Part shown: piece by piece, positions 870 to 46,350 of the stretch | How the letters are laid out: each line of letters begins with the position of its first letter | Position numbering within the stretch: the first letter of the stretch is position 1 | Assembly (NCBI GenBank): GCA_964396715.1 | Contig: CAYNFQ010000001.1 | Span: 117,873-181,872, forward strand | DNA from: an uncultured Gammaproteobacteria bacterium | GTDB lineage: Bacteria; Patescibacteriota; Microgenomatia; Daviesbacterales; UBA10151 | Length of the DNA: 64,000 nt | Direction: 5' to 3' | The notes under the pieces: generated by a model | Told to the model about the DNA's origin: nothing | The model's input: the letters and a program-made list of their open reading frames with translations, nothing else | Databases searched by the model: none | Translations under genes and position numbers: made by a program

Positions 870-3143
870 TTAATTTGTGCTCCATAATTTTAAACCATTG
901 CCAAAGCCTTCCCATATTACCTCGGGGTCACAATTACAAATACTCTTAGGGTCCTTCCCCTGTCTCAAAATCAGATAGTCATAGTGATCTAAATTACCAA
1001 GTATTGGTATTTTTCCCTCAATTCTACTCCAATAGTTGTGGGCACCATAAATATCTCTTTCTCTTAACGTCATCACCATGGCTCGATAAAATTCAATTGA
1101 GTCTTGGTCAATGTAAATTGATCCATCTGATGGAGCTATTCTTGCTAGTTCCTCTAAAGTGCCGCTTAGGGTTTGAGAATTTTCTATATAAGAGGGTAGT
1201 ACCTTTAGGATTGTTTCCGTTGGATCGGAGTAAACTTTTTGAAAATAATCCGGATTTAACAGATCCTGTTTTCTTAAATTAGGCAGGCTGGAGTAATAAA
1301 AGTTATTGATCATTAAATATTCTACCTTGAGGTTTTTTAGTATTCCAGGATTTAAAGTGTAGTATAAATCCACATATGATGGACCTGCATCAAAATTTTC
1401 ATATGCTCTTAAATCAGGGCCAAAAACAGGGGTAAAAACTCCAATCTGTGTTGCCAAATCCATATTGGTTGAGGGAATAGTATTCCCATCAGTTAAGGCA
1501 ACAATTCTTTTCTCCACAGGTAAATTATTTTTTATCCACTCAAAGCTGGGTCTTTTGATTTCTTGAACAATTTTAAACCAAGATAAATCCGATCTTCTGG
1601 GAAAAAGCCTGGCAAATGGTGGAACCAAAGAAAATATTAATATCCAAAGGATCAAAATTTTTAAAACTATGTATTTTTTGCCTTGATGGCTTAACCACCA
1701 ATTTATGATAAAAAATCCAATGCCTATTCCTGATAATTGATATGAAATTGCCAGGAATCTCCATCCATTTGTATGGAACAGTTTTGGCACCAACCCATGG
1801 TAGGCAATCAATGCTGAAAGGGAAGAAATGAGTATTAATGCTAAAATAGTATTAAATTCATAATCTTTTTTTTTAGTTAAGTAAAATACAACAATAATAA
1901 GAAGGGCAAGGAGTTGCCAAATAATACCTATCTGCAACCATCTAAAAGGTTGGAACCTAGGAAGATCTTCAAATAAAGTGGATGCTTGTGAATGCAATCT
2001 AAGACTTCTGAAATTCTCATAAGGATTATTTGGATTATCAGCGGGGAATATTAATATTCCTGAGCCCGTGTGGTATCTATTCAATATAGCTTCTTTGATT
2101 ATTCCGCCCTGAAAAGAAATGATAAACAAAATAGCTAGAGTAGTTAATATCCATAATTTAATTTTTCTTTCAAAGCAAAAAAAGGATACCAAAAATATGG
2201 CAGGTAATATAGAAATTAAAACTGATTCATCAAGCAAAGCAATCGATGCGATCGAAATTATAAGAACAAGGCTAGTTAATAGATTTTTCCTATTGGGATA
2301 CAAAAGGAGAGGAATTAAGCTTAAAAAAATTGAAGTAGAGACTAACCTATGCAATATATAAATTAAGGGATCTAGAAATCCCGCCGAAGCATTAGAAATC
2401 TCAATACTTGGTAGCTTATTTAGCCAGTTTAAAATTCCATTATCAAGATTAGGAAGTGCAAGTTTGCTTGGCCAGACTATCATAAACGCTCCCAAGGAAA
2501 TAAAGCCTATAAAACCCGACAGTGAAAACAATAAAATATTAGAAGATTTTTTAGAAAATAAAATCCAGGTTATGATTTGGATAGAGCAAAATAAAGAGAT
2601 AAGTGCTAAAACAGCATGTATAAAATGATATGAACCTCCAGTTAGAAACCTAACCGCTGCCAGAAGTTGAGAAATGCCTAAATGGGAATAGCTCACATAA
2701 TCAGGTTGCCAGGGAGTATGTATTGGAAAATCTCCTCTTAAAAAAACAGAAGCCTGAGTAAAATAAAAAGTATTATCAGATCCATTAAAGGGGGATGTAT
2801 TGGTAATAATAAGAAAAAATGCACCCCAAAAAAATAAGGTAACAAACCAAGCAATCCTTTGTTTTCCTTGAGGAAATTCTAGTGGATTGGTTTTAATAAG
2901 CTTTACTATGATAAAGGTCAGAAGTAGTTGGATTATTACAGCCGAATAAAATAGTGGCCAGCCTTTTATAAAATGCGCTGAAAAATTTATTAAAAATAAA
3001 AATAGCGATATTCCAAACAAACAACCGGCTGGTAATATGATTTCTGCTCTTCGGGTAGATAACACTCTTTTTGTGATTGTAATTCCACAGTATAGTAGGA
3101 TGGAAAACAAAATTAGTGTTTTAAAGTAAATATACAAAGTCAT
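870..3143 (-). CDS. Polytopic membrane protein (family A), ~12 N-terminal TM helices plus C-terminal soluble domain; possible GT-C-type glycosyltransferase
   Basis: 757-aa ORF; hydrophobic N-terminal two thirds; motifs ITNTSPFNG, HTPWQPDY, HTNGWRFL, RLFPRRSDLSW, LTDGNTIPSTNMDLATQIG shared with 5314..7656. Confidence 0.7.
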   Translation of the reverse strand: MTLYIYFKTLILFSILLYCGITITKRVLSTRRAEIILPAGCLFGISLFLFLINFSAHFIKGWPLFYSAVIIQLLLTFIIVKLIKTNPLEFPQGKQRIAWFVTLFFWGAFFLIITNTSPFNGSDNTFYFTQASVFLRGDFPIHTPWQPDYVSYSHLGISQLLAAVRFLTGGSYHFIHAVLALISLFCSIQIITWILFSKKSSNILLFSLSGFIGFISLGAFMIVWPSKLALPNLDNGILNWLNKLPSIEISNASAGFLDPLIYILHRLVSTSIFLSLIPLLLYPNRKNLLTSLVLIISIASIALLDESVLISILPAIFLVSFFCFERKIKLWILTTLAILFIISFQGGIIKEAILNRYHTGSGILIFPADNPNNPYENFRSLRLHSQASTLFEDLPRFQPFRWLQIGIIWQLLALLIIVVFYLTKKKDYEFNTILALILISSLSALIAYHGLVPKLFHTNGWRFLAISYQLSGIGIGFFIINWWLSHQGKKYIVLKILILWILIFSLVPPFARLFPRRSDLSWFKIVQEIKRPSFEWIKNNLPVEKRIVALTDGNTIPSTNMDLATQIGVFTPVFGPDLRAYENFDAGPSYVDLYYTLNPGILKNLKVEYLMINNFYYSSLPNLRKQDLLNPDYFQKVYSDPTETILKVLPSYIENSQTLSGTLEELARIAPSDGSIYIDQDSIEFYRAMVMTLRERDIYGAHNYWSRIEGKIPILGNLDHYDYLILRQGKDPKSICNCDPEVIWEGFGNGLKLWSTN

Positions 3144-3203: not shown

Positions 3204-3953
3204 TTATTTTTTGATTACTGCCAATAACGATATGCCAAAAGGATAATTTATAAATTTACTAAATGCTATTTCTGTTTTAAATATTGTGAGCAATATTTTA
3301 TTGATTATTCTGATTTTAGCTAAGTTAAAATTTAACTGGGAATCATGCTCTCCTAATCCCTTGAATAGACTAATCTTGGATAAAAATCTTATTATTACTA
3401 TGGGAAAAGAAAGTAGAAAATTAAAAAAGACCATATTTAGTATTTTTAGGTTAGCATTTTCTGCCAAAGATTCAATTTCATCTCTCCTGTACCTTCTATG
3501 GTGATTTTGCATGCTATCATGTTGAGACCAAATTATAGGGAGCGCAGGGACGGTTATTATTATAAGACCATTTTTTTTTAGTACACGTTTAGCTTCCTTA
3601 ATTGCTAACTCGTCATTTTCAATATGTTCTAAAACATCTAAGAAAACAACTACATCAAACATGCGGTTCCTATAAGGTAATTTACATGCATTTGCCAATT
3701 TTACCTTCTTTGCCCCCTTTTTTTTACAGTAGTCAATTGCTAGTTTCATATTGTCTATTCCGTGAACATTGCCGAAATTGGATAAAAATTTAATATTGCT
3801 ACCTGTACCACAACCTATATCTAAAATAACTACATCTTCTAGTTTTTTTTGTAGAAATTTCTTAAAAATTTTGCTAAGAATTTGTCTTCTTCCCTCAAAC
3901 CACCAATGAAAATCTTCAATCTCGGTAAATTTATCAATTAAATAAGCGTTCAT
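3204..3953 (-). CDS. Class I SAM-dependent methyltransferase
   Basis: Motif I VILDIGCGTGSN, acidic loop, LDVLEHI motif; 249 aa. Confidence 0.8.
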   Translation of the reverse strand: MNAYLIDKFTEIEDFHWWFEGRRQILSKIFKKFLQKKLEDVVILDIGCGTGSNIKFLSNFGNVHGIDNMKLAIDYCKKKGAKKVKLANACKLPYRNRMFDVVVFLDVLEHIENDELAIKEAKRVLKKNGLIIITVPALPIIWSQHDSMQNHHRRYRRDEIESLAENANLKILNMVFFNFLLSFPIVIIRFLSKISLFKGLGEHDSQLNFNLAKIRIINKILLTIFKTEIAFSKFINYPFGISLLAVIKK

Positions 3954-4030
3954 AGGTATTTTAATATCATAAAAAGGTCAAATAAAATTTTAACATAGCT
4001 TTTTTAGATACAAAGCCATCTTAGTAAATT

Positions 4031-5359
4031 CTAGACGATTATTTCTCTAGAGATAATTTCTGCTATGGCCCCCCCCATTTCTATTGCATAGTTTGTTCCT
4101 CTGTCCCAGGGATAAACCATATCCAAATTAGCCAGATAAACATTTTTTAAAGGAGTTTTAAATGTAGGGATTAAATCTTTGTAGTTTGTGGTGACAATGG
4201 GTTGGGCAAAGGGGCCGACAAATTTGTGATAAGTGATAAGTGATAAGTGATAAGTTGGGTTGATTTTTTTAAGATATGGATCAAATTTTTTCAAAATTGA
4301 CTTGGCGGTCATTTTTAAAAACGGATGATCAGATGGTAAGTAATTACCAATATAAATAATGTGCTTCCCCCCATAATGTTTGGGATCCATGAAGTTGGTG
4401 TGTTCTGCAATTATCAAAAATGGGAAGCTGCTGTCAGTGATATTTAACCAGTAAGTTTTTTCCATAAACGGTTTTTTGAGAACCAGAATTAAAACTAAAG
4501 CATGAAGATGGGGGATGGAGCATATTTTTTTAACATATGTTTTTGGAAGATTTGTTGTTATTTTAGCAAAAATGGGGGATGGCAGTGTAATTATTGCTTT
4601 ATCAAAAATGAGTTTTTTAGCACCAGTTTTTATCCTAACATTTTTTCCCGCGGATAACGAGGTAACTGATGTGCCAGTCAAAATTTCTCCTCCCATTTTT
4701 TTAATTTCCTCCCCAAGTCTGTCGGCAAAAGCTTTAAACCCTCCTTCCGGATAAGCAAGCCTTGGAGTTCTTTTTTTAATTCTTGCCCAAAACCAGGATA
4801 ATGCAATATTATCTTTGTAAGAGCCGAACTTTCCGGAAAATAACGGCTCCCACAGCATTTTAGCAGCCCTCTCCCCCATAAAACGCTTAATCCAGGATAA
4901 AGCAAATTTATTTTCAAATTTATCGTAACGGTTGATTAATTTTAGGTACAAAAGGGAAATTCCAACACGCAAACGGTCAATAATTGGGAGCGGAATAAAT
5001 GTTAAAAGAGATTTAGGGCTATCAAAAGGGAATCGCTTACCGTTTACTAAAACATCTGTAGACGGTCTTTTAATTATAACTTTATGTCTCAATTCCCTTG
5101 TTAGATTAAAAGCTGCCTGATCATTAGTAAACCAGTGATGATAGGCTTTCTCCAGTGTCCACCGCCATTTGGGATTTGAAAATCCAATAGCCAGACCGCC
5201 AAGTTCGGATTCTTTTTCAAAAATAGTCACCTTGTAGCCTTTTTTTAGCAAGGTGTATGCGGCTGATAAACCTGTGAAGCCTGCCCCAAGAATTGCAACT
5301 TTATCGGCCCTTTTCATTTTGTTTTCCATAAATTTACTCTTCCGTCCAATCCTGACCAC
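4031..5359 (-). CDS. FAD/NAD(P)-binding oxidoreductase (amine-oxidase/protoporphyrinogen-oxidase/UGM-like superfamily)
   Basis: N-terminal Rossmann dinucleotide motif VAILGAGFTGLSAAYTL...EKESELGGL; 442 aa. Confidence 0.65.
   Translation of the reverse strand: MVRIGRKSKFMENKMKRADKVAILGAGFTGLSAAYTLLKKGYKVTIFEKESELGGLAIGFSNPKWRWTLEKAYHHWFTNDQAAFNLTRELRHKVIIKRPSTDVLVNGKRFPFDSPKSLLTFIPLPIIDRLRVGISLLYLKLINRYDKFENKFALSWIKRFMGERAAKMLWEPLFSGKFGSYKDNIALSWFWARIKKRTPRLAYPEGGFKAFADRLGEEIKKMGGEILTGTSVTSLSAGKNVRIKTGAKKLIFDKAIITLPSPIFAKITTNLPKTYVKKICSIPHLHALVLILVLKKPFMEKTYWLNITDSSFPFLIIAEHTNFMDPKHYGGKHIIYIGNYLPSDHPFLKMTAKSILKKFDPYLKKINPTYHLSLITYHKFVGPFAQPIVTTNYKDLIPTFKTPLKNVYLANLDMVYPWDRGTNYAIEMGGAIAEIISREIIV
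4226..4253. repeat. Perfect heptanucleotide tandem repeat (GTGATAA)x4 inside the oxidoreductase CDS (encodes TYHLSLITYH on minus strand)
   Basis: Read directly: gtgataagtgataagtgataagtgataag. Confidence 0.9.
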
Positions 5360-7656
5360 AGTAATTCAGCCTGGCAATGGCAGATTGATTGAATGTCTAA
5401 ATTATGACCGCCTACAATATAATCATAATGATCTGAACTGATGCCGTAAAAAGGGATATTAATGCTCAATCTGCTATTCCAATAATCTGTTACCCCATAA
5501 AATTTCCTGTCACGTAATATTAAAAGAAGAGGTCTGTACAGGTCGAAAAATTCCTGAGCTGATTTATGATCTATAAAAAAACTTCCCTTTTTCGGTAGTA
5601 TTTTTTCGAGTTCCTCTAAAGTACCCTTCAGATTCTTGCCCTCTTCTAAATATTTAGGCAGTATCTTTACTATTACTTCTCCCGACGGGTCATTTAAGAC
5701 TGGTTGAAAAAACTCACTATTAAATATGTCAGACTTTCTTACTTGGGATAATTGAGATAGATAAAGGTTATCTATTATCAAATAAGAAGGTTTAAGTTTC
5801 TTAAGTGAATTTGGATTTAAAGTATAGTAAAGATCGATATAAGTGGGGCTTATATCAAATCCGTCGTAATTACGGATATCATCGGGCCAAATAGGGGTAT
5901 AAGCTCCAATTTGTTTGACGAGATTCATATTGGAAGAAGGAGTAGGGTTGTCATCGGTTAATGCCAATATTCTTTCGGAAATTGGGATGTTTTGTTTTAC
6001 CCATTCGTAAATTTGTTTTTTCGGTTCAGGTCGTACTGTGATCCATGAGAGATCGGGACGTCTTGGGAAAAGACGCAAGAAGGAGGGAACAAAGGAAAAA
6101 ATCAAAATCCACACAATAAGAAATTTCAAAAAGAAAAATTTTCTTGGAATTTTGCCCCAAAAAAATATTAAAGAGAAACCCACACCAATACCCGCCAGTT
6201 TATATGATAAAAATAAAAACCGCCAGCCATTAGTATGAAAAGGGTTTGGAACTATAATATGGAAAGCAAGAAAGGCGCCTAAAGAGGAAAAAAACATTAT
6301 CAAAATCATAAGTTTTAGTCTTTTTTCTTCCTCATTGTTTTCTTTTTTGGTAAATAATGTAACGTAGGAAGACATAAACAGCAGAAAACCCAGTAGCCAG
6401 ATAATTCCCACTCTAAACCACCTGAATGGTTGCAATGTTGCTAAATCATCATATAGATATGAAGATTGATATGCCAGTCTCCAGCTTCTAAATTTCTCAA
6501 AAGGATTTTCCCTATCCCCAGGCAAAATTAATGTTCCGGAACCCATTTTGTAGCGGTCTAATAGAACCTCTGTGACAGTGCCGCCTTGAATTGCTATTGT
6601 AGCAATTGATAAAAGTACGAAAATGGTTAAGGGGAGCAATCTTCTAAATGTAAATATTGCTATAAAAAAGACCGCTGGCATTGCGGGGATTAATACTGAT
6701 TCATCGGTTAATGCGATTGTTGCAAGAAAGATAACTAAGGTACCTATTGAGATAAGATATTTTTTATTTTCTGATGGAGATAAAAGAACCGGAAGTAAGC
6801 CAATAAAAAAAGACATGGCAGTGACTCTTTGCAGGAAAAGAATGACTGCATCTATTGAAATATAGTCAAGATAGCCAAGGTAAGGAAATTGCGGAGGATT
6901 TGGCATTTCCAAAGCAGGCAGTGATGTTAACCAGTTAACCAAACTGCCATTTATATCAGGTAAAGCTATTTTGGCAGGCCAGGCAAGCATGAAACTGCCT
7001 ACGGAGATAATACCTGCAAAAGGAGGAATAGATAAAATAAGGAAGGACCGGAAACTTTTTGTTTTTTTAAAATCTAAAAGCCAAGTTAGGATTTGACTGC
7101 AAGAAAACAAAGCAAGAAACGCTATGAATGCTTGAATAAAATAATAATTAGCGCCTGTTAAAATCTTAAAAGACCCCAAAAGTTGTGAGGCACCCAAATG
7201 AAGAAAGGCAATATAGTTTGGCTGCCATGGGGCGTGTAGCGGTAAACCCTCTCTAGTAAAGAGGGCTGCAAAGGATTGATATTCAGTATCATGTCCTCCG
7301 TTAAAAGGTGAGGTATTTGTGATAATAAAGAGCAGGACTCCCCAGAAAACAGCTGAAATTATCCAAAATAGCCTTAATGTTTTAGTTGGAAACTCCAGCG
7401 GTTGCACCTTTTGTTTTATATGAATAATTAAAGCTAGGATTATTTCTACTGCTAAACTTATATAAAAAAGGGGTGATCCTTTTATAAAATAGGCAAAGGC
7501 ATTAGTCAAAAAAAGATATAGTGAGAGGCCAAAAATAAGCGCGGTAGGTGCAAGTATTTGTAAACGGTTATCTTTAGTTGCTCTTCTGATAATGGCCATT
7601 CCGCTTAAGAAAATAATTAATGTAAAAATTAAAGTTTTAAGGTATATAAAAAGCAT
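5314..7656 (-). CDS. Polytopic membrane protein (family A paralog); start trimmed to Met98 of the 877-aa ORF by alignment with the 870..3143 paralog
   Basis: MLFIYLKTLIFTLIIF aligns with MTLYIYFKTLILFSIL; trimming also removes the head-to-head overlap with the divergent GT2 gene; motifs ITNTSPFNG, HAPWQPNY, HTNGWRFL, RLFPRRPDLSW, LTDDNPTPSSNMNL. Confidence 0.7.
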   Translation of the reverse strand: MLFIYLKTLIFTLIIFLSGMAIIRRATKDNRLQILAPTALIFGLSLYLFLTNAFAYFIKGSPLFYISLAVEIILALIIHIKQKVQPLEFPTKTLRLFWIISAVFWGVLLFIITNTSPFNGGHDTEYQSFAALFTREGLPLHAPWQPNYIAFLHLGASQLLGSFKILTGANYYFIQAFIAFLALFSCSQILTWLLDFKKTKSFRSFLILSIPPFAGIISVGSFMLAWPAKIALPDINGSLVNWLTSLPALEMPNPPQFPYLGYLDYISIDAVILFLQRVTAMSFFIGLLPVLLSPSENKKYLISIGTLVIFLATIALTDESVLIPAMPAVFFIAIFTFRRLLPLTIFVLLSIATIAIQGGTVTEVLLDRYKMGSGTLILPGDRENPFEKFRSWRLAYQSSYLYDDLATLQPFRWFRVGIIWLLGFLLFMSSYVTLFTKKENNEEEKRLKLMILIMFFSSLGAFLAFHIIVPNPFHTNGWRFLFLSYKLAGIGVGFSLIFFWGKIPRKFFFLKFLIVWILIFSFVPSFLRLFPRRPDLSWITVRPEPKKQIYEWVKQNIPISERILALTDDNPTPSSNMNLVKQIGAYTPIWPDDIRNYDGFDISPTYIDLYYTLNPNSLKKLKPSYLIIDNLYLSQLSQVRKSDIFNSEFFQPVLNDPSGEVIVKILPKYLEEGKNLKGTLEELEKILPKKGSFFIDHKSAQEFFDLYRPLLLILRDRKFYGVTDYWNSRLSINIPFYGISSDHYDYIVGGHNLDIQSICHCQAELLWSGLDGRVNLWKTK

Positions 7657-7738
7657 ACCCTGATACATTATCAAAAAGGTTATGCTTAGTAAAGCTATTG
7701 TTGTAAGCAATTTCACAACTTCAGTTATAATTAGTAAT
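7657..7738. promoter_or_regulatory. Divergent intergenic region between family-A membrane protein gene and GT2 gene; probable bidirectional promoter
   Basis: Only non-coding gap between divergently oriented genes; AT-rich. No consensus elements confirmed. Confidence 0.25.
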
Positions 7739-8455
7739 ATGAAAAATGATTTGAAACAAATGGCTGGGGTGTCTTTAATTATTCCCGTTTTAGATGAAGA
7801 AAAAACTTTAACCGATATAATTTCCAAATGCTCAAAAGAGACAGTAGTGAAACAGCTCGTTATTGTAAATGATGGTTCAACAGATAAGACTAAAAATATC
7901 CTGGATAGATTAAGCAGTGAGAATAAGAATAGTAGGCCTCTTATCACGGTTACTCATCATTCAAAGAATTTAGGGAAAGGTGCAGCTATTAAAACTGGGT
8001 TAACTAGAGTTTTAGGAAAATATGTCATGGTTCAGGATGCGGATTTGGAATATTCTCCTGATGAAATTAAATACCTGTTTAATGAGGCGAAAAAAGAAAA
8101 CAGAATTGTTTTTGGCACAAGATCTCATCATAAAAAAAAGGGTTATCTTCTTGCCCAACTTGGTAACTGGTATTTAAATGTAATGTTTAATTTATTATTT
8201 GGTTACAGTTTAACAGACAGCTATACTTGTTATAAATTGATCCCCCAGACTATTTGGAAAAAAATGAATCTTGTATCAAATGGGTTTGAAATTGATGCCG
8301 AATTAATTTCTAAACTGGGTGTAAATGGTTATAAAATTAAAGAAATTCCTATATCATATTTTCCCAGAAAATATTCAGAGGGTAAAAAAATTAAGTGGTT
8401 GGATCTTTTTAAAGCAACTGCAGTAGCACTAAGGATTCGTTTTAGTCATTTGTAA
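7739..8455 (+). CDS. GT2 glycosyltransferase, polyprenyl-phosphate sugar synthase type (DPM1/ArnC-like)
   Basis: SLIIPVLDEE...VIVNDGSTDKT, DxD motif QDADLEY, C-terminal amphipathic tail; start could be 7682, 7739 or 7760; paralog of 51785..52525. Confidence 0.75.
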   Translation: MKNDLKQMAGVSLIIPVLDEEKTLTDIISKCSKETVVKQLVIVNDGSTDKTKNILDRLSSENKNSRPLITVTHHSKNLGKGAAIKTGLTRVLGKYVMVQDADLEYSPDEIKYLFNEAKKENRIVFGTRSHHKKKGYLLAQLGNWYLNVMFNLLFGYSLTDSYTCYKLIPQTIWKKMNLVSNGFEIDAELISKLGVNGYKIKEIPISYFPRKYSEGKKIKWLDLFKATAVALRIRFSHL

Positions 8456-12185: not shown

Positions 12186-13037
12186 ATGATTTGTTTTATG
12201 TTATTGGTCTCCATTATTATAACCACCAAAAACGAGCAGAAGAATATTGGCAGACTGCTTGATTCAATAAACGCCCAGAGCTATAAAAATATTGAAACTA
12301 TTTTGGTTGATAATAACTCTTCTGATCAGACTAAAGATGTTGCGAAAAAACTGGGAGCTAAAGTTTACAATTTTGGTCCGGAAAGATCTGCCCAGAGAAA
12401 TTTTGGCGCTAAAGTAGCCAGGGGAAAATACTTATTATTTGTTGATGCGGATATGGAACTTTCAAAAGATGTAGTTTTACAATGTGTCAAATTAATGGAG
12501 AAAAATGAGGAAACAGTAGCTTTAGCCATACCGGAAAATCCAATCGCCAGCACTTTTTGGGATAAAGTGAAAGCACATGAAAGATTAATCTATAACAGGG
12601 AAGGCGATCCGGTAACCGATGCCGCAAGATTTTTTAGAAAAGAAATTTTTATGAGGGTCGGCGGATATGATGAAACAATAACCGGTCCTGAAGATTGGGA
12701 TTTACCGGAAACAATAAAAGAGGCGGGTTTTAAAATAGGCAGGATTTCAGGGTATATCAATCATAGGGAGAGGGTACTTTCCCCTCTAACTCTGGCAAGG
12801 AAGAAATTCTACTACGGCTTGGGCGCTCACAGATATTTGGAAAAGCACAAAATTCCTATAGTTGGCCCTAAAACCGTCTATTTTTTAAGGCCGATATTCT
12901 ATAAAAACTGGCTTAAGCTTATCAAAAATCCTTTTTTAACTTTGGCTATGATATTCATGATGACGGCAGAGCTTTTAGGCGGAGGATTGGGCTATTTAAT
13001 TGGGCTATATAATAGTAGAAGGATTAAAAGATTATGA
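12186..13037 (+). CDS. GT2 glycosyltransferase
   Basis: VSIIITTKNEQKNI...VDNNSSDQT, DAD motif; start moved to Met24 to avoid overlap with convergent cupin gene. Confidence 0.75.
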   Translation: MICFMLLVSIIITTKNEQKNIGRLLDSINAQSYKNIETILVDNNSSDQTKDVAKKLGAKVYNFGPERSAQRNFGAKVARGKYLLFVDADMELSKDVVLQCVKLMEKNEETVALAIPENPIASTFWDKVKAHERLIYNREGDPVTDAARFFRKEIFMRVGGYDETITGPEDWDLPETIKEAGFKIGRISGYINHRERVLSPLTLARKKFYYGLGAHRYLEKHKIPIVGPKTVYFLRPIFYKNWLKLIKNPFLTLAMIFMMTAELLGGGLGYLIGLYNSRRIKRL

Positions 13038-14158
13038 AGGTGTTACAAATTTCAACCCATTTCCTGCCAAATCTGGGGGGTATCGAGACCCATCTTGGGG
13101 ATTTAACAAAGGCTTTGGTAAAAAGACATTGGCAGGTTTTTGTATTGGCATACAGGCCGCTTACCACAAAAACCGACTGGAAAATATATGAGATGGAGGG
13201 AAATTTAAAAGTTTTAAGAATTCCCTGGATACCGGGTTTTTTCTATAAACTTGTTCAAAGTCCTGTTTTGGAATTTTTATACCTTGTTCCGGGTCTTTTC
13301 CTTGCCACCCCAATACTGCTGCTGCTATACAATCCCGAAGTGATAAACGGACACGGATTGGTCGCCGGATTTGTTTCAGTTTTTTGGGGAAGGCTGTTTG
13401 GTAAAAAAGTTGTTGTTTCCACCCACAGTATTTACCATTTTCCAAAAAGAGGTTTATACAAACAATTTGTCCGTTGGATTTTCTCTAAATCAGATTTTGT
13501 TTTGGGACTTTCCAAGCAGGCTGTTTCGGAGATTAAATCATTGAATCCTGAGAATTCCAGGGTTGACAACTTTACTTATTGGGTAGATTTAAATAAGTTT
13601 AAAGTGCAAAGTGCAAAGTTCAAAGTGAAAAAACAGTTGGGGTGGGATGATAAATTTGTGATTTTGTTTGTGGGAAGACTGGTTTTAGAAAAAGGCATAA
13701 AGGAGCTTTTGCAGGCAGCAGGTATTTGGAATAAAAATATCCGGCTGGCAATTATCGGAAGCGGGCCTCTTGAAGGATACCTAAGGAGTCGATTTTCTCG
13801 CGCAAACATTCACTTTGCAGGAAAAATTGAGCAGGATAAATTGCCTGACTTTTATAACGCGGCGGATTTGTTAGTCGTACCTTCAATTCATGAAGAAGGA
13901 TTTGGCAGAGTGATTTTGGAATCGCTGTCTTGCGGATTGCCGGTTGTAGGAGCAAACCGCGGCGCTATTCCCGAAGCCATGGATGAAACCGTAGGAAAAC
14001 TTATTGACATTACTGTGCAAAACATTAAAAATGCCGTAGAGTATTTTTATTTGCATCAAGATGAATTAAGGAAATTAGCCAAAAACTGCCGCAACTTTGC
14101 AGAAAGGAGATATTCGGAAAAAAATGTTGAAAAAATCATCAAAGCCTACCTTGGATAA
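13034..14158 (+). CDS. GT4 (GT-B) glycosyltransferase
   Basis: C-terminal EEGFGRVILESLSCGLPVV signature; ATGA overlap with upstream gene. Confidence 0.8.
   Translation: MKVLQISTHFLPNLGGIETHLGDLTKALVKRHWQVFVLAYRPLTTKTDWKIYEMEGNLKVLRIPWIPGFFYKLVQSPVLEFLYLVPGLFLATPILLLLYNPEVINGHGLVAGFVSVFWGRLFGKKVVVSTHSIYHFPKRGLYKQFVRWIFSKSDFVLGLSKQAVSEIKSLNPENSRVDNFTYWVDLNKFKVQSAKFKVKKQLGWDDKFVILFVGRLVLEKGIKELLQAAGIWNKNIRLAIIGSGPLEGYLRSRFSRANIHFAGKIEQDKLPDFYNAADLLVVPSIHEEGFGRVILESLSCGLPVVGANRGAIPEAMDETVGKLIDITVQNIKNAVEYFYLHQDELRKLAKNCRNFAERRYSEKNVEKIIKAYLG
13593..13627. repeat. Imperfect heptanucleotide tandem repeat (CAAAGTK)x5 inside GT4 CDS, encoding NKFKVQSAKFKVK
   Basis: Read directly: taagttt aaagtg caaagtg caaagtt caaagtg; same unit as the tract at 48356-48390. 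Confidence 0.85.
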
Positions 14159-32226: not shown

Positions 32227-34377
32227 ATGATGGATATTAAAAAAAATTTGAGTCCACTAATTATTTTAATAGTTTGTTTGATCCTTATTTTTGTATGGTT
32301 TAACAAGGGTTTGCTTTTTGCAGGTGGAGAGGGGGGAATCCCTTTTTATAACCTTTCAAAAACTGCAGAGCGCATTTCTTATCTTTGGATAGATGAAGAG
32401 GCTGGTTATCCGGGTGTAGGCAATCTAACAGAAGTCCCTTACTATGCATTGCTTAAGATCCCTTTGCAGTTTGGTGTGCCTTCAAATCTGGTTCAGGCTT
32501 TTCATTTTTTCTTGGTTATGTTTACCGGCGTGGTTTCTGTATATTTTCTGATAAAAATAACCATAGAGGAAGAACTTAAAAAAAATCTTAATTTTTGGGG
32601 CGCAAAATATATATCTTTGATTGGCGCTATCTTCTATTTATTAAATCCTTTTTCCATGTCGCAGGTTTTTGGCAGGAGTTTAAATATTCAATATCTTTCT
32701 TTTGTATTGCTGCCTTTATTTCTCCTGCTGTATATCAGGGGACTTAAAACAAGAAATCTAATATATGGCTTTTTAAGCTTGATACCTTCTTTTATCTTCT
32801 CAGGAGCGTATGGCAGTTTTGGATATATACCAGCACTTTGGTTTCTGGTATTTCTTTATACTGTATTTTACCTTTGGAAAAATAGAAGTAAAAGAGAAAT
32901 TATTTTTGGTATTTTTTTCTTATCTTTTGTTTTTCTCAGCTGGATCATGGTAAATCTTTTTTGGATTATTCCGGTTTTTAAATTAGGGGGACAACAACTG
33001 GCAGCTTCCCTTAATGCGACAGAGGAAAATCTTGGGTCTTTAAGAGGGGTGAGTAAGCATTTTTCTCTGCCTATTCTTATCAGGCTTCTTCATACAGGAT
33101 ATTTCTATGAGGATTTATACGGGATTGTTTATTCAAGTTTATTCTTTGTGATTATAAGTTGGATAATTCCTGTAGTGTCATTTTTTTCATTAACCCTTTT
33201 TAAGAAAGTAACCAGTTTTAAATTCTACCTGACTTTATTTGTAATTTCCCTTTTTATATCTTTAGGTTCTAATTTCCCAACAGGCTGGTTATTTGAATTC
33301 ATATTTGAAGCTGTACCTGCATTTCAAATGTACAGGAATCCTTATGAAAAATTTGGGCTGATTTTTCTTTTAGCCTATACCCCATTTTTTGCATTGGGGA
33401 CTCTGGTTTTGTCAGAAAAATTAGCTGCCTTTTTTAAACATCAACGTTTAAAGTATTTTTGGGTGGTGCTCATTCTTTTTCTGGTGAGTGGCATTTTTGT
33501 TTGGCCAATGTGGAAGGGAATTTTTGCAGGAGGTTACAGGATCAATACCTGGATAAACGTACCTGATTATTATAAAAATGCTAACGATTGGTTAAATCAG
33601 CAGGATGGAGATTTTAGATTGTTGCATCTTCCTTTAATTCCAGGAGATGGCATAAGGTATAAGTGGGATCATCCATATCAAGGCATTGAACCGTCTGAAT
33701 TTTTATTTGATAGAGCATCAATAGCTCAAAATATTCCTTTTAACAAACAATATTACAATGTTTTACTTCAGCGCATTGGGATTTTCCAGCCAAATATTTT
33801 TGGTTCTGATCCTGATTTGACAAATTCGGAATTTAAATCCGAAAAATTAGGGGAAGAGTTAGCGAAATTAAATATTCGATATATAGTTTTACATAATGAT
33901 ATTGATGTTAGTTTCGGTGGTTTCAAAACACCACAAGAAACTGCAGTCTATTTGGCCAAAGATAAAAAAATAATCAAAGTTAAAAGTTTCGGTCAGCTGG
34001 ATATATATGAGGTGGAAATTCCCCAAAATATTCAAATTATTTATTCTCCATCAACTACTTTAATCTATGAAAAAATTAACCCCGCTTTTTATAAAGTAAA
34101 AGTTACTGATGAAGTTAAACCTTTTAATTTGAATTTTCTTATGTCTTACAATTCAAATTGGCACGCTGTTATTGATGGTGAAGTAATACAGGATCATGTA
34201 AAATTATTTTCGTATGGAAATTCCTGGGAAGTTAACAAAACCGGCAGTTTTGAAATAGATTTAGTTTATAAACCGCAGGAACTGGTTAAACAGGGACAAA
34301 TAATTTCAACGTTTTCGTTTATAGTAATATCTCTGCTGATGGTCTGTTACCAAATTATATGGAAAAAAAGAATTTAA
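32227..34377 (+). CDS. Large polytopic membrane protein, family B (N-terminal multi-TM GT-C-like domain + C-terminal extracytoplasmic beta-rich domain)
   Basis: Shares WFxxGLxFxGGxxGxxFxN, RNPYEKFG, LLHLPLIPGDGIRYKWDHPYQGIEPSEF, IRYIVLHND motifs with the giants at 38636, 42468 and 46347. Confidence 0.65.
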   Translation: MMDIKKNLSPLIILIVCLILIFVWFNKGLLFAGGEGGIPFYNLSKTAERISYLWIDEEAGYPGVGNLTEVPYYALLKIPLQFGVPSNLVQAFHFFLVMFTGVVSVYFLIKITIEEELKKNLNFWGAKYISLIGAIFYLLNPFSMSQVFGRSLNIQYLSFVLLPLFLLLYIRGLKTRNLIYGFLSLIPSFIFSGAYGSFGYIPALWFLVFLYTVFYLWKNRSKREIIFGIFFLSFVFLSWIMVNLFWIIPVFKLGGQQLAASLNATEENLGSLRGVSKHFSLPILIRLLHTGYFYEDLYGIVYSSLFFVIISWIIPVVSFFSLTLFKKVTSFKFYLTLFVISLFISLGSNFPTGWLFEFIFEAVPAFQMYRNPYEKFGLIFLLAYTPFFALGTLVLSEKLAAFFKHQRLKYFWVVLILFLVSGIFVWPMWKGIFAGGYRINTWINVPDYYKNANDWLNQQDGDFRLLHLPLIPGDGIRYKWDHPYQGIEPSEFLFDRASIAQNIPFNKQYYNVLLQRIGIFQPNIFGSDPDLTNSEFKSEKLGEELAKLNIRYIVLHNDIDVSFGGFKTPQETAVYLAKDKKIIKVKSFGQLDIYEVEIPQNIQIIYSPSTTLIYEKINPAFYKVKVTDEVKPFNLNFLMSYNSNWHAVIDGEVIQDHVKLFSYGNSWEVNKTGSFEIDLVYKPQELVKQGQIISTFSFIVISLLMVCYQIIWKKRI

Positions 34378-35528
34378 AAATTTATATTTTTGCCCTAGCT
34401 GCAACAGGTTCGGGAATTTCTGGTTCTGACAGGATTTTTATTGAATTTACTAGAAAGTGGAGTAAAGAAGTTCCAGTGATAGTCTATCTATGGAGGGAGG
34501 GTTATGAGATGTGCCAAAGGCAAAATCTGGGAATATCAAATATTGAATATCGAATATCGAATATGAAATCATGGAGACCTTTTAGATTTCTAATAAATTA
34601 CATAGTTAGAATTATAGAGGGGATAAAACTAGGGACTATCTTAAAATTAAAAAATACTCCCCAAATCATTATTTATTCAGCTTCGGAATTTTGGATGGAT
34701 TCATTGCTGGCATTTTTATTAAAATTGCGCTTTCCCAAGGTTAAATGGGCTGCAGCATGGTATCAAACTGCACCTAGTCCGCTAAAAGGATTTTCCGGGT
34801 CTTTAATTTATTGGTTAGTTCAACTTCCAATAAAACCTCTGATTGATAGATTTGCTAACTTTGTTTTAGTAAATAATGATATGGAGAAGAAGGTTTTCAA
34901 GAGACTGAACAGAAAAAATAAAGCAATAGTTGTTTTGGGAGCAATAGATCTAGAGGGAATAAAAAAGTGGCAAAAGATTATCGGTAAAAAGAAGAAAATT
35001 TATGACGGAGTATTTCAAGGCAGGTTTCATCCGCAAAAAGGAGTTTTGGAGCTTATTGGTATATGGAAGAAGGTGGTTGATAAGAAACCGGATGCAAAAT
35101 TGGTAATGATAGGGGATGGGCCACTGATGGAAAATGTCAAATTACAAATTACAAATTACAAATTAAACAAAAACATCATTCTCAAAGGGTATATGTTTGA
35201 TGGGGAAGAGAAATATAAGATATTTGCCCAAAGCAAAATTGTGGTGCATCCTGCCATCTTTGATTCCGGCGGTATGGCATCGGCCGAGGCAATGGCTTTT
35301 GGATTGCCTTGCGTGGGTTTTAATTTAAAATCATACATTTACTATTACCCTTCAGGAATGGAAAAGGTTGATGAAGGAAATACCGAAGCTTTTGCCAAAA
35401 AAATACTTGAGCTTCTAAGTAATAAAACTTTATATGAAAAAGTATCCAAAGAAACATTGTATCTAATTAATTATAAATGGTCATGGGAATATAGGGCTCG
35501 TCAAATACTACAAGCAGTGTTAGAATAA
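34359..35528 (+). CDS. GT4 (GT-B) glycosyltransferase
   Basis: C-terminal GGMASAEAMAFGLPCVGF GT4 signature. Confidence 0.75.
   Translation: MEKKNLKIYIFALAATGSGISGSDRIFIEFTRKWSKEVPVIVYLWREGYEMCQRQNLGISNIEYRISNMKSWRPFRFLINYIVRIIEGIKLGTILKLKNTPQIIIYSASEFWMDSLLAFLLKLRFPKVKWAAAWYQTAPSPLKGFSGSLIYWLVQLPIKPLIDRFANFVLVNNDMEKKVFKRLNRKNKAIVVLGAIDLEGIKKWQKIIGKKKKIYDGVFQGRFHPQKGVLELIGIWKKVVDKKPDAKLVMIGDGPLMENVKLQITNYKLNKNIILKGYMFDGEEKYKIFAQSKIVVHPAIFDSGGMASAEAMAFGLPCVGFNLKSYIYYYPSGMEKVDEGNTEAFAKKILELLSNKTLYEKVSKETLYLINYKWSWEYRARQILQAVLE
34531..34572. repeat. Imperfect heptanucleotide tandem repeat (GAATATC)x6 within GT4 CDS (encodes GISNIEYRISNMKS)
   Basis: gaatatc aaatatt gaatatc gaatatc gaatatg aaatcat. 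Confidence 0.85.
35138..35165. repeat. Perfect heptanucleotide tandem repeat (CAAATTA)x4 within the same GT4 CDS (encodes KLQITNYKL)
   Basis: caaattacaaattacaaattacaaatta. Confidence 0.9.
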
Positions 35529-36447: not shown

Positions 36448-38000
36448 AAAACAAATTAGCTTCGGTTGTAATAGTCACACATAATAGGAAGAAAGACTTG
36501 CTGGAATGTATAGATTCTTATTTTAAGTCAAGTTATCACCCGATTGAAGTAATTGTTGTAGATAATGCCTCAAATCCTGCCGTAAAAACATATCTTCCAA
36601 AAAAATATCCTAAGGTAAGAGTAATAACCAATAATAGAAACCTGGGGGCAGCGGAAGGAAGAAATATAGGTTTGGATACCTCAGTGGGGGAGTATATCCT
36701 GTTTTCGGATGATGATGCTTTTTGCGATAAAGATATGGTTAAGTATTTGGTTGAGGCATTCAAAAAAAAGCGTAAGGCAGGGATAATCCAGCCTTTGGTT
36801 TATGACAAACAAAAGAAAAATTATTTACAGGGGGCAGGTCATGATATTGATCTAACAACTGGAAGAATTAAGGCCTGGGGAGTCAGAGAAGAAGATAAGG
36901 GCCAATATGAAGGTTTAAGAAAAGTGCCAATGGTAGGATGTGTCTGGATGGTTAGAAAAGAAGTGTTTGAACAGGTGGGTAAATTTGATGCGGAATACTT
37001 TATTCCCTATGAAGACAGCGATTTTTGTTTGAGAGCATCAAATGCCGGTTTTGAAATTTATTGTTACTCAATGGCTAAATCTTGGCATTTGGGTCTTAAA
37101 ACAACTCATGTACATCCCCTGGTAGAGTGGTTAGGAATAACAACTCCGGAAAGATCGTATAGAGTTGCCAGAAACAAAATAATTTTTATGGCAAAAAACT
37201 CAAAATTTCCCAACAATTTGTTATTTTTCGGGCTATTTATGCCTGCATATTTGATTTTGCACTCATTAGTAATAATGTTGAGCGGTAGGTGGGATTTGTT
37301 AACAAGATACTGGCAGGGTGTTATCTCCGGGATATGGTATGGAATAAGGAGATTATTTAATAAAGCGACCATCATTATACTTTCCTTCACTGATCCGCTC
37401 CCATGGGTTTTGGATAAAAAGACAACAAGCATTTTAGACGTAGGGTGTGGAGAGGGTTTACCTATGAAGTTAATTAAAATAAGACTTAAGATAGAAAATT
37501 CAACCGGAGTAGATTTATTCAAGCCCTATATAGAAAAGGGAAGACAGTTTCAAATACATGATAATTACAAAATTCAGGATATAAGAAAGATAAATTTTAA
37601 AAATAGGTCTTATGATACGGTTATAGCGTCTCATGTTTTGGAACATCTTCCCAAAGATGATGCATTGAACCTTTTGCAAAAAATAGAGAAAATTGCCTCA
37701 AGACAAATAATTATAGCTTGCCCGATTGGACAGATGTATCACCCTGAAACAGACGGAAATAAACTGCAATTACACCTTTCGGCTTTTGAACCGGAAGAAT
37801 TTGAAAAAAGGGGTTATAAAATTATTAGGTATGGGTTCAGATGGTTGTTGGGAGAAGGAGGGATAATGGAATCATTTTCTAATATTTTCATCACGGAGAT
37901 TTGTTTTACTATTCACTTGCTATTTACGCCTATTTTTTATATATTTCCCAATATTGGAAGCTACACATTTGTGGCCTACAAAAAATGTAATGAAGCATAA
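36444..38000 (+). CDS. Fusion protein: N-terminal GT2 glycosyltransferase + hydrophobic linker + C-terminal class I SAM methyltransferase
   Basis: ASVVIVTHNRKKDLL...VIVVDNAS, DDD; then ILDVGCGEGLP...SHVLEHLPK MTase motifs; 518 aa. Confidence 0.7.
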   Translation: MKNKLASVVIVTHNRKKDLLECIDSYFKSSYHPIEVIVVDNASNPAVKTYLPKKYPKVRVITNNRNLGAAEGRNIGLDTSVGEYILFSDDDAFCDKDMVKYLVEAFKKKRKAGIIQPLVYDKQKKNYLQGAGHDIDLTTGRIKAWGVREEDKGQYEGLRKVPMVGCVWMVRKEVFEQVGKFDAEYFIPYEDSDFCLRASNAGFEIYCYSMAKSWHLGLKTTHVHPLVEWLGITTPERSYRVARNKIIFMAKNSKFPNNLLFFGLFMPAYLILHSLVIMLSGRWDLLTRYWQGVISGIWYGIRRLFNKATIIILSFTDPLPWVLDKKTTSILDVGCGEGLPMKLIKIRLKIENSTGVDLFKPYIEKGRQFQIHDNYKIQDIRKINFKNRSYDTVIASHVLEHLPKDDALNLLQKIEKIASRQIIIACPIGQMYHPETDGNKLQLHLSAFEPEEFEKRGYKIIRYGFRWLLGEGGIMESFSNIFITEICFTIHLLFTPIFYIFPNIGSYTFVAYKKCNEA

Positions 38001-38682
38001 TCACCGGCATGAATTTGAAAAAGATTCACAGAGCAAGTTTAAATTATTTTTAATGGCTATATCCGATCCATTGTCTTGGGTTGTTGATAAATCGGTAAGG
38101 TCAATATTGGATTTGGGGTGCGGTCAGGGCAAGCCAATGGCTATGATCAAACTTTGGCACAAAATAGATACTGCGGTGGGAGTTGAGCTATATAAGCCGT
38201 ATATTAAACTTGCAAGAAAGCAGAAGTTACACGATAAATATATTATTGGAGATGTAAGAGAGGTTAATTTTAAACCAAAATCTTACGATTTAGTTTTAGC
38301 CTCCCATGTTCTAGAGCATCTTCCTAAAAAGGATGCATGGAAACTTTTGAGCAAGATGGAAAAAATTGCCAAGATGCAAATTATTGTGGCAACGCCGATC
38401 GGAGCAATTTATCAACCTGCTTTTGATGATAATAAACTCCAGCAACACAAATCACATTTTCTGCCGGAAGAATTTGAAAAAAGAGGTTACAAGGTGATCA
38501 AATACGGTTTAAGATTTCTTTTGGATGAACATTCCGGGGGATTAGTTTACAAATTTAGCAATCCTACTGTTAAAAAAATTATCTATATTGTTAATTTTTT
38601 AATGACTCCTCTTTACTATCTATTCCCTCAAATTTGTGATTATTCGTTTGTGGCCTACAGGAGTATTAATAGTGAAAATTAA
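37990..38682 (+). CDS. Class I SAM methyltransferase, tandem paralog of the C-terminal domain of 36444..38000
   Basis: ILDLGCGQGKP...ASHVLEHLPKKDAWKLL...FLPEEFEKRGYKVIKYGLRFLL collinear with fused domain; start at Met13 of ORF. Confidence 0.7.
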   Translation: MKHNHRHEFEKDSQSKFKLFLMAISDPLSWVVDKSVRSILDLGCGQGKPMAMIKLWHKIDTAVGVELYKPYIKLARKQKLHDKYIIGDVREVNFKPKSYDLVLASHVLEHLPKKDAWKLLSKMEKIAKMQIIVATPIGAIYQPAFDDNKLQQHKSHFLPEEFEKRGYKVIKYGLRFLLDEHSGGLVYKFSNPTVKKIIYIVNFLMTPLYYLFPQICDYSFVAYRSINSEN

Positions 38683-42139: not shown

Positions 42140-42483
42140 AATCAGTATCCATAAGGTTGTTTATTTTGTTTCTTTCAATAGTATTGATTTATTATACTAA
42201 TGGTAATGCCGGCAGTGAATCTTTTGGAAATATTCAATCTGCAATTTTGTCAGCAGGTTTGATTGTTGCAGTGTATTTACCTGCTAAGAGGCCTTTCATA
42301 CTTCTCTTTGCCATTTTAATGTGGTCTGTTATGATAGGATTTTACCTGGTAGAAGCTCGGGATTATGCTTACTTTTTCGGCAGTATAGGTTTTGGGATAA
42401 TATTTCTGGTAATCTTAACTTATGTTCCGGAACTTTTAAAAACAGGTTATATAGCCGATTTTCAAAAATGGTTCAAAGATTAA
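42121..42483 (+). CDS. Small (120 aa) 3-4 TM membrane protein following giant B1
   Basis: Hydrophobic; C-terminal GSIGFGIIFLVILTYVPELLKTGY resembles GSLGIGILAILIFSYFGDFVKRGF of 45935..46264. Confidence 0.5.
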   Translation: MAYQKIKSVSIRLFILFLSIVLIYYTNGNAGSESFGNIQSAILSAGLIVAVYLPAKRPFILLFAILMWSVMIGFYLVEARDYAYFFGSIGFGIIFLVILTYVPELLKTGYIADFQKWFKD

Positions 42484-46264: not shown

Positions 46265-46350
46265 AATACCTATTCTCACTTATTTTATTTTTTCTGATAG
46301 TAGCATCGGTATTTTTTTATATTTTGGGGGTTAGATTTAAGAAAAAATGA
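46261..46350 (+). CDS. Micro-ORF, 29-aa single-TM peptide MKYLFSLILFFLIVASVFFYILGVRFKKK
   Basis: ATG overlaps upstream TGA (46261-46264), its TGA overlaps ATG of giant B3 (46347-46350); below ORF-track length cutoff. Confidence 0.35.
   Translation: MKYLFSLILFFLIVASVFFYILGVRFKKK

Follow-up and report, generated by a model that had tools for sequence, protein, structure and literature searches.

The subject of this report is a short tandem array of the heptanucleotide GTGATAA that lies within the coding sequence (CDS) of a flavin adenine dinucleotide (FAD)-dependent oxidoreductase, in a stretch of 64,000 nucleotides from an uncultured groundwater bacterium, Candidatus Daviesbacteria, of the Microgenomates, within the Candidate Phyla Radiation (CPR; assembly GCA_964396715.1, contig CAYNFQ010000001.1, positions 117,873 to 181,872 of the forward strand; hereafter, the window). 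The array is a genuine, non-random heptanucleotide microsatellite within the CDS, and the comparison of divergent orthologs indicates that it is maintained as DNA, beyond what the encoded protein requires. The reading that we prefer, probable if far from certain, is that of a coding microsatellite homogenised and maintained by slippage, which is overwhelmingly in the ON state and represents a latent switch.

The array in its gene and in divergent orthologs

On the forward strand, positions 4226–4255 read (GTGATAA)×4.3, with 100% matches; the coding (minus) strand has AC(TTATCAC)4, i.e., 4.3 perfect copies, translated as TYHLSLITYH and corresponding to residues T355–H364 of a protein of 428 amino acids (aa). 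A preliminary description of this DNA, made from its letters, had listed four perfect copies at 4226–4253 and the same peptide: the four whole copies fall within the longer tract, the coding strand translates as stated, and the repeat holds up as a real feature of the CDS. Its placement in the 5' third of the gene is valid in plus-strand coordinates only, as the tract sits 83% along the minus-strand CDS. In 100 third-order Markov simulations of the window, the mean number of perfect heptamer arrays of at least four copies was 0.00, and that of perfect tandem arrays of any period from 2 to 15 was 0.02; the window holds three perfect heptamer arrays of this length (starting at 4226, 35138, and 48356) and two degenerate ones (13601 and 34531). 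With its uninterrupted head-to-tail 7-nucleotide (nt) copies in excess of chance, the oxidoreductase array has the properties by which heptanucleotide long simple sequence repeats (SSRs) are recognised.

The evidence for maintenance as DNA comes from a set of 81 homologous loci, consisting of 80 species-representative genomes and the contig (L081) that encodes protein P0002. Two of these loci, L081 and L001, whose proteins are 71% and 65% identical to that of the window, carry a TTATCAC array with 4.9 and 4.6 perfect copies, respectively, and P0002 has the identical peptide TYHLSLITYH. Between the window and L081, 10 of 10 array codons are identical, compared with the 52.6% of conserved residues that share a codon outside the array (P = 1.6e-3). 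Between the window and L001, 9 of 9 array codons are identical (P = 2.6e-3), and the tenth, the first codon of the array, is ATT and not ACT in L001. The three lineages, with proteins 65–71% identical, thus have in common an identical array of 28–34 nt embedded among saturated synonymous sites, and it is because identical arrays persist while the flanking synonymous sites are saturated that the repeat can be said to be maintained as DNA. Recent horizontal gene transfer or recombination was considered as the origin of the common array and rejected, since the flanks are only 60–68% identical and the array, within a run of 33 nt, is the longest identical run in the gene.

A GT1 glycosyltransferase (GT) gene of the window, at 34359–35528, shows the same pattern. 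An AAATTAC×3.9 array in one of its segments is identical in two lineages, the window and locus L004, and nearly every third position differs in the flanking codons of the fully conserved peptide. In the window this is the sister array (CAAATTA)×4 at 35138–35165 (plus strand, perfect, in frame, encoding KLQITNYKL), which its L004 ortholog matches over 27 nt, with A and not C as the leading base. Moreover, given the peptide and the codon usage of the window, the probability of a perfect array at the oxidoreductase site is 1.9e-5; because of this value, the periodicity is not a by-product of the protein, and peptide or codon bias was rejected as its cause. Finally, in a pair of near-identical alleles, the sole difference over 2,785 nt falls inside the array (AACTACC to AACTACT).

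The host protein belongs to a family that is large in Microgenomates, and in an alignment of 27 of its sequences (A1) the array-encoded peptide occupies columns of conserved length, with no insertion. Besides the lineages described above, about ten further CPR lineages have 3–5 copies of other heptamers at exactly this site, with units that include AACTCAC, AATTTCA and AATTTGA, AAAATTG, AATTCTC, ACGATTT/ACAATTT, GTTTACC, AAAATTT, AATTATA, and AAATTCC; in all, a heptamer array of at least three copies, built from at least eight different units, is found there in about 13–15 of approximately 49 CPR loci. The Chloroflexota homologs among the 81 loci, which read FxxxW[VI]RxxWLF, have no heptamer array at the site. 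A control scan of the whole gene in the 81 loci returned near-perfect four-copy arrays at period 7 only (none at periods 5, 6, and 8–11), and 11 of these 12 arrays map to residues 350–369. At the protein level, a 7-residue echo is visible at the site in 45 of 113 homologs, and the array takes up the variable stretch delimited by the conserved NP and LF anchors. The orthologous arrays are alike in their repetitiveness alone; therefore, we infer, the property that is preserved must be the ability of the copies to mispair. The preliminary description had counted a conserved segment of the same sequence in homologs as evidence against a switch, and two divergent homologs (L081 and L001) do share the sequence at a conserved length. 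This view is too simple, however: the persistence of an identical perfect repeat across saturated synonymous divergence speaks for maintenance that is specific to the repeat, and not against it.

One pair of close homologs deserves separate mention. Proteins P0045 and P0125 differ in 7 of 13 residues at the site, and this difference was rejected as a product of slippage, as it belongs to a mosaic tract of about 100 nt (45 of 81 differences in nt 987–1088) that reflects recombination, with no gain or loss of a unit. At the DNA level (L205 versus L206, protein identity 94.8%, 81 differences in 1,275 nt), the 3' boundary of this tract coincides with the heptamer site, and a second, smaller tract spans nt 100–171. 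Judging from these sequences, recombination seems to shuffle the L205/L206 segment that carries the heptamer site.

A class of in-frame heptamer arrays

The oxidoreductase array is one member of a class. A census of perfect tandem arrays (at least three copies and at least 16 nt) in 669 kb of Microgenomates DNA, made up of the window and the loci, counted 35 arrays at period 7, one at period 6, two at period 8, one at period 14, and none at other periods, which makes heptamers the predominant long-unit class in this lineage. Long open reading frames (ORFs) contain 32 of the 35 (∼91%), to be compared with an open-frame fraction of 95.5%, so that coding DNA has neither an excess nor a deficit of arrays, and none of these 32 interrupts its ORF. 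The copy number has a median of about 3.9 and extremes of 3.0 and 6.6, and the relative position of the arrays within genes is even, with no 5' excess (Kolmogorov–Smirnov, KS, P = 0.11). Their coding strand is free of stops and contains only 7% G, presumably because TAG and TGA must be avoided in all three phases. More than 20 different units occur among the 35 arrays; together with their location in long ORFs, this sets them apart from intergenic regulatory heptamers, which have one favoured unit in intergenic or 5'-untranslated regions.

The genes that host these arrays encode GT1 enzymes, PMT-type members of GT-C, and DUF2298, YfhO-like, and TMEM260-like proteins. Around the oxidoreductase, 20 arrays lie downstream, among glycosyltransferases, and 4 upstream, over about 270 kb on either side, which amounts to a fivefold difference in density (P = 0.0015); most of the upstream genes sampled have core functions (Mur ligase, MurJ, and Rho, with MiaA and SecDF in L081), accompanied by several unannotated ORFs and one GT2-methyltransferase. 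Units also turn over within a single homologous segment: GT1 orthologs that are 66–70% identical have a GAATATC-like unit in the window, GATTTAC×4.3 in L004, and GTATCAG×3.9 in L005.

Tandem repetition of heptamers is far broader than CPR. A scan of metagenome contigs for (TTATCAC)×3 found (TTATCAC)n with 3–19 copies in at least 120 contigs (L083–L202), of GC content 0.21–0.71, with no oxidoreductase gene among the matches listed. The listed contigs contain 70 other period-7 arrays and at most 6 at any other period, and only about 40% of their arrays sit in long open frames.

Regarding individual members of the class, one Gottesmanbacteria genome (L032) has an identical array, (AACTCAC)×4.7–4.9, encoding NSQLTTHNSQL, in two genes that are unrelated and separated by 4 kb, namely the oxidoreductase and a PMT-like GT-C (L032:6463–6495 and L032:10687–10720); the second copy is immediately preceded by a degenerate GTTATGG-like heptamer array. 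Since the flanks are unrelated, the common unit was not attributed to a copied segment; ectopic conversion between the two arrays is possible. The same locus has the sole period-8 arrays in the 669 kb, at L032:9096–9121 and L032:10868–10893, both built from one unit (GTTTATTT, ×3.2). The longest array in the CPR loci, at L028:1134–1209, consists of (AAATCCT)×6.6 followed, after a single substitution, by a further 4.1 copies. Beginning within the final codons of a 6-phosphogluconate-dehydrogenase-like gene, it sets the stop codon of that gene through the TAA contained in the unit and fills the intergenic spacer. This array, with 6.6 and 4.1 copies and no open frame, was considered as an OFF allele and rejected, as it lies at the extreme 3' end of the gene and runs into the spacer.

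Switching, homogenisation, and other explanations

As in contingency loci, the unit is not a multiple of three and lies within a CDS, where a change by one unit causes both a frameshift and a truncation, and the motifs downstream are invariant. In the AlphaFold2 model of the host protein (predicted local distance difference test, pLDDT, 85.3; predicted template modelling score, pTM, 0.86), residues 355–364 form a short turn or helix and the start of a core strand (360–370) that leads to the invariant AQP motif, with pLDDT of about 85. After a slip by one unit, the CDS at 4031–4225 (minus strand) would be out of frame; it encodes residues 365–428, i.e., the rest of the strand, AQP, the YPWDRGTNYA motif, and a C-terminal helix (410–427). 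The predicted product with one unit more has 388 aa, of which 364 are native and 24 out of frame, and that with one unit less has 379 aa; both would lack the last 64 native residues, including YPWDRGTNYA and the helix 410–427. A slipped allele would likely yield a null enzyme, and extra heptads would probably not be tolerated at this site, as it belongs to a core strand.

The consensus data speak for a constant copy number. The window is 100% identical to contig JACPUL010000012.1 of the metagenome-assembled genome (MAG) GCA_016192255.1 and to Logan assemblies of runs SRR121133xx/SRR121134xx, all of which represent one sampling project or population. Four copies are present in every assembly that spans the array (the NCBI MAG and two Logan runs), so that the copy-number variation envisaged by the preliminary description did not appear. 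Members of the 90%-identity clusters have equal lengths, and no in-frame variants of +3 or −3 units occur among the aligned and 90%-cluster homologs. A tblastn frame check found no frameshifted allele in the 81 loci, and the best 120 matches of a profile built from the region N-terminal to the array include no truncated protein, all being 407–445 aa long. The predicted +1 and −1 products are absent, by exact look-up, from a collection of 15 billion proteins that omits edge-truncated products. The partial products called at contig edges (74, 221, 222, and 269 aa) are absent from it too; because of the omission, the absence of such fragments is uninformative, and it follows that genes broken by k = 31 assembly at heptamer arrays are systematically missing from the collection. 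The 894-aa membrane protein that hosts another array (see below) is recorded from the NCBI MAG only.

To our knowledge, phase variation by SSRs is known almost entirely from host-adapted pathogens. The closest precedent in the form of the repeat is NeuO of E. coli K1, encoded by the CUS-3 prophage, which varies in phase through a coding heptanucleotide, (AAGACTC)n; its 5' tract has 3–53 copies, the OFF state is found in 65.6% of 64 complete genomes, and minority cells with 20 or 22 copies can be measured in culture (PMC13001214). Both cases involve a heptanucleotide in the CDS of an enzyme that modifies surface glycans, or, for the oxidoreductase, of a gene in a glycosylation island, and in both a 7-residue repeat is read in all three phases and changes other than multiples of three cause a frameshift. 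They differ in that the oxidoreductase tract, with its 4.3 copies, is located 83% along the gene and in a core strand, with neither an OFF allele nor another copy number found. In H. influenzae, (TGAAAGA)n tracts occur in the hmw1A and hmw2A promoters, and (AATTTTG)14 lies inside hmw1A of strain PittAA, where a frameshift was observed (PMC2651432). These heptamer tracts are likewise tied to genes for surface structures, one being intragenic (PMC2651432), but they have 13–38 copies, vary among strains, and are mostly in promoters, whereas the present ones are short, invariant, and intragenic. A long tract, as in NeuO (3–53 copies) or hmw (13–38), is not what is seen here, where the oxidoreductase array has 4.3 copies and the class a maximum of 6.6. 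Organisms that tune phase variation display an N-terminal bias of their SSRs (PMC3315296); the oxidoreductase array lies at 0.83 of its gene, and the class as a whole is evenly distributed (KS P = 0.11).

The bias toward period 7 is itself not new, being known for prokaryotic long SSRs. In the passages of PMC4679880 that cite Mrazek et al. 2007, most prokaryotes have heptamers as their commonest class of long SSRs, for which slippage favoured by a polymerase contact spanning about 7 nt is proposed as the reason. The same bias is found in our census, with 35 arrays at period 7 and at most 4 for all other periods; that survey, as those passages of PMC4679880 present it, favours units that are multiples of three inside genes, whereas here non-triplet heptamers sit in genes, at conserved orthologous positions and with frozen synonymous sites. 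The TAACTGA direct repeats of Beggiatoaceae and cyanobacteria are also genome-wide tandem heptamers, with 2–6 copies (PMC4679880). They consist of one favoured unit, which contains stop codons when read forward, and most of them lie in intergenic DNA shortly before a start codon; our arrays use more than 20 units, are in ORFs in about 91% of cases, and have a stop-free coding strand. The heptamers of cyanobacterial short tandemly repeated repetitive (STRR) sequences are a comparable case. The literature searched contained no link of heptanucleotide repeats or contingency loci to CPR or Patescibacteria, which is no proof of novelty.

Under the reading that we prefer, transient misalignment during replication or repair would keep homogenising the copies, in a form of concerted evolution. 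Every position of the unit would be read in all three codon phases, so that a change spreading through the array would be non-synonymous and be removed by selection, which would freeze the unit. The period of 7 would reflect the general heptamer bias of prokaryotic long SSRs, and the arrays would be carried in frame, across Microgenomates, by accessory envelope-glycosylation genes, in segments that are permissive. Gain or loss of one unit would frameshift the oxidoreductase and thereby make the array a latent ON/OFF site, of which the four-copy ON allele would predominate overwhelmingly in nature; switching, if any, would be rare or confined to sub-populations, and not of the NeuO kind.

Several points weigh against this reading. 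Homogenisation without a change in length is deduced and not observed, and the maintenance is not universal, since proteins P0003–P0005 (71–72% identical) have decayed versions of the array, as is expected for the life cycle of a microsatellite. The enrichment of arrays in dispensable glycan genes, and their persistence at the same site across order-level divergence, would also be expected under selection for switchability. The other points come from Logan contigs (k = 31) of the window population, gathered from at least 10 runs with neighbouring genes as anchors, among which the adjoining methyltransferase gene (3204–3953) served for collecting every assembly that reaches the oxidoreductase array; all of these contigs are 100% identical to the window over their overlap. 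Five of them (from SRR12113428 and the runs of the same series ending in 383, 429, 385, and 433) stop at exactly 4255, where the array has its last base, and the contig of the deepest run, SRR12113425_4930, stops at exactly 35165, likewise the final base of its array, the 28-nt sister array. If such breaks represent real variants, then OFF alleles are not rare.

All Logan contigs reaching the third array have their start within it (48361, 48362, or 48365). Overall, 9 of 29 contig ends fall on the 92 nt of the arrays (P ∼5e-19), or 3 of 23 with a single count per array (P = 6e-6). In a de Bruijn simulation at k = 31, an allele with one or two additional units gives ends at exactly 4255 and 35165, and an allele with one unit less gives ends at 4248 and 35158, neither of which is seen; the break points of the third array fit neither simple model exactly. 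Logan drops singleton k-mers and keeps each 31-mer once per accession, and breaks at arrays of at least 30 nt (k − 1) are ambiguous, because periodic 31-mers from other genomes of the metagenome with the same unit would create the same branch; such arrays are common. The frequency of breaks rises with array length, from 1 of 5 at 28 nt to 5 of 7 at 30 nt and to all at 34 nt, and this rise across k − 1 = 30 suggests that periodic 31-mers are common to other genomes. The break at the 28-nt array is the only one that needs a locus-specific k-mer, GT(CAAATTA)4C, which is either a true +1 allele or a single-nucleotide change at 35166. The breaks at array edges are therefore suggestive of, and compatible with, a sub-population with five copies, and they are technically ambiguous.

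The alternative that these breaks bear upon is a true contingency locus, where selection keeps the array perfect, reversible slips by one unit switch the oxidoreductase, and the sister arrays switch the neighbouring glycosyltransferases, giving a population-level bet-hedging of surface glycans (e.g., against phage or for host attachment) whose OFF minority is hidden by consensus assemblies. We consider it rather unlikely, though a serious rival in the form of a low-frequency switch. It agrees with the frameshift logic of a one-unit change, with perfect repeats being kept regardless of the sequence of the unit, with their concentration in accessory glycosylation genes, with the excess of contig ends on arrays and their coincidence, at 4255 and 35165, with the prediction for +1-unit alleles, and with coding heptamer switches such as NeuO and the internal (AATTTTG)14 of hmw1A. 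Against it stand the 4.3 copies of the tract, the same copy number in all spanning assemblies, the absence of in-frame variants of three units and of any 5' bias, and the increase in breaks as array length crosses k − 1, which suggests periodic 31-mers from other genomes. Contingency loci occur in nature as both ON and OFF genotypes, and no OFF genotype was found in the 81 loci, the best 120 N-terminal matches, the exact look-ups, or the 32 ORF-embedded arrays. The slipped-strand switch advanced in the preliminary description therefore stands in part: the array is non-random, a one-unit change frameshifts the gene, the repeat is kept perfect as DNA, and similar arrays lie in surface-glycan genes, but neither copy-number differences nor OFF alleles have been observed, the tract is short, and a 5' bias is missing. 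A wider version of the contingency reading, a Microgenomates “heptamer phasome”, supposes dozens of arrays of 4–5 copies per genome of about 1 Mb, kept by selection at conserved positions in surface-glycosylation genes, with rare slips that give rise to OFF sub-populations; this we hold to be doubtful. Were it true, it would provide combinatorial, heritable surface-glycan variation (against phage or during host attachment) to organisms with almost no transcriptional regulators, and the breaks of contigs at the edges of arrays, seen in many groundwater samples, would represent the earliest sign of this heterogeneity.

Two other explanations can be set beside these. Tandem heptamers might be a nucleic-acid signal that needs four units: a platform for a protein of the oligonucleotide/oligosaccharide-binding (OB)-fold or cold-shock type, with one heptamer per protein, a translational pause or RNA element, or a recombination hotspot. 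The copy number of about four at the site across lineages, the binding of CspB to heptamer direct repeats with weak sequence specificity (PMC4679880), and the mosaic tract of P0045/P0125 that ends at the array would suit it. We nevertheless judge it very improbable, as units that are wholly different between orthologs and between genes leave no possibility for a sequence-specific reader, the arrays occupy arbitrary positions in genes, and the length of the one at the site simply fills the segment between the NP and LF anchors. In addition, the array has no Rfam match, the sole match within 3900–5500 being to rliG at 4568–4722 (E = 0.59), and no RNA structure is predicted there (z = 0.03 for the mRNA segment). 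The periodicity might instead have come about by chance, through codon bias, or as a by-product of protein-level selection on a peptide with a 7-residue echo (TYH..LI TYH), and it is true that the family consensus is weakly 7-periodic (xYxLSLIxYxLF), in line with the echo in 45 of 113 homologs. A protein repeat of 21 nt, however, implies no DNA period of 7 nt, in-frame periods of 6 and 9 are essentially absent, and about zero arrays are expected by chance. The frozen synonymous sites of the array, next to saturated flanking ones, and the value of 1.9e-5 given the peptide and codon usage largely refute this explanation already, and we give it next to no credence.

The Microgenomates, as this locus shows, carry a dense set of period-7-specific, in-frame arrays in envelope-glycosylation genes, at conserved orthologous sites, with units that turn over and synonymous sites that are frozen. 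Should the arrays switch, ultra-small episymbionts would have in them a bet-hedging mechanism for varying their surface; otherwise, the arrays offer a clean natural case of concerted evolution of a microsatellite under a triple-phase coding constraint. For users of assembled data, heptamer arrays systematically break k = 31 assemblies, so that protein sets derived from Logan under-represent the genes concerned.

Gene neighbourhood and further repeats

The host ORF spans 4031–5359 on the minus strand. Gene callers start it at 5317 (428 aa; CDS 4031–5317) or at 5329 (432 aa), and a further upstream start exists at 5359. The product is an FAD-dependent oxidoreductase of the PRK07233 family, within the amine-oxidase/CrtI/HpnE superfamily, an assignment already made in outline by the preliminary description and supported by matches to PF01593 (1.3e-28, the amine-oxidase fold) and to NF005560/PRK07233 (399.6 bits, with a cut-off of 252). 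PF13450 is also matched, and G11, G13, and G16 of the N-terminal GxGxxG dinucleotide-binding motif are invariant in alignment A1, so that both the score and the motif place the protein in this family, which is uncharacterised. Its solved relatives are all remote, namely PF1083, CrtI-type desaturases, and MAO.

Downstream of the oxidoreductase lies a class I methyltransferase dependent on S-adenosylmethionine (3204–3953, minus strand; PF08241), and the gene pair is flanked by two large membrane proteins, one of 757 aa with no family match (870–3143, minus strand) and one immediately upstream of the oxidoreductase (5314–7947, minus strand), with an ORF of 877 aa called as 780–800 aa. The two are paralogs with 46% identity over 783 aa; the flanking paralogs and the adjoining methyltransferase are thus as the preliminary description had them. 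The oxidoreductase belongs to a glycosylation island with GT1, GT2, GT4, and GT-C enzymes, sugar epimerases, and methyltransferases, and its orthologs adjoin PMT-type GT-C genes and UppS. It is the company of UppS and GT-C genes alone that suggests a polyprenyl-phosphate-linked glycan carrier as the substrate of the oxidoreductase.

Apart from the GT1 array at 35138–35165, the window contains a second perfect sister array, (TTCAAAG)×4.9, at 48356–48389 on the plus strand, in frame (SKFKVQSSKFK) in the gene of an 894-aa membrane protein (46347–49031). A repeat scan identified two degenerate heptamer arrays, both on the plus strand: a GAATATC-like one with 85% matches at 34531–34564, in the GT1 gene, and AAAGTGC×4.4 with 87% matches at 13601–13631, in a GT4 glycosyltransferase gene (13034–14158).

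Other features of the window involve repetition of different kinds. A perfect tandem repeat of a 28-nt unit (AGACAGGTTTTCAATCTTGCCTGTCGGC) is present in 2.5 copies at 61239–61309 (Tandem Repeats Finder score 142), beginning 33 nt into the ORF 61206–61847. Each unit holds the inverted repeat GACAGG...CCTGTC and, since 28 is not a multiple of three, the tract may be a further frameshift site or else a structured element. The overlapping ORFs 38636–42139, 42121–42483, and 42321–45938 code for giant GT-C_AftD-like membrane proteins and may be two adjacent paralogs or one frameshifted gene; in addition, the segments 37506–37842 and 38179–38515 of the window are an internal duplication with 68.7% identity. 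Among the Logan contigs, SRR12113426_448057 ends at 51985, inside a heptamer mini-array of 2.3 copies of ATGTCAA (window 51981–51996), and three contigs end within 3 nt of each other, at 35327–35330, where no obvious repeat is found.

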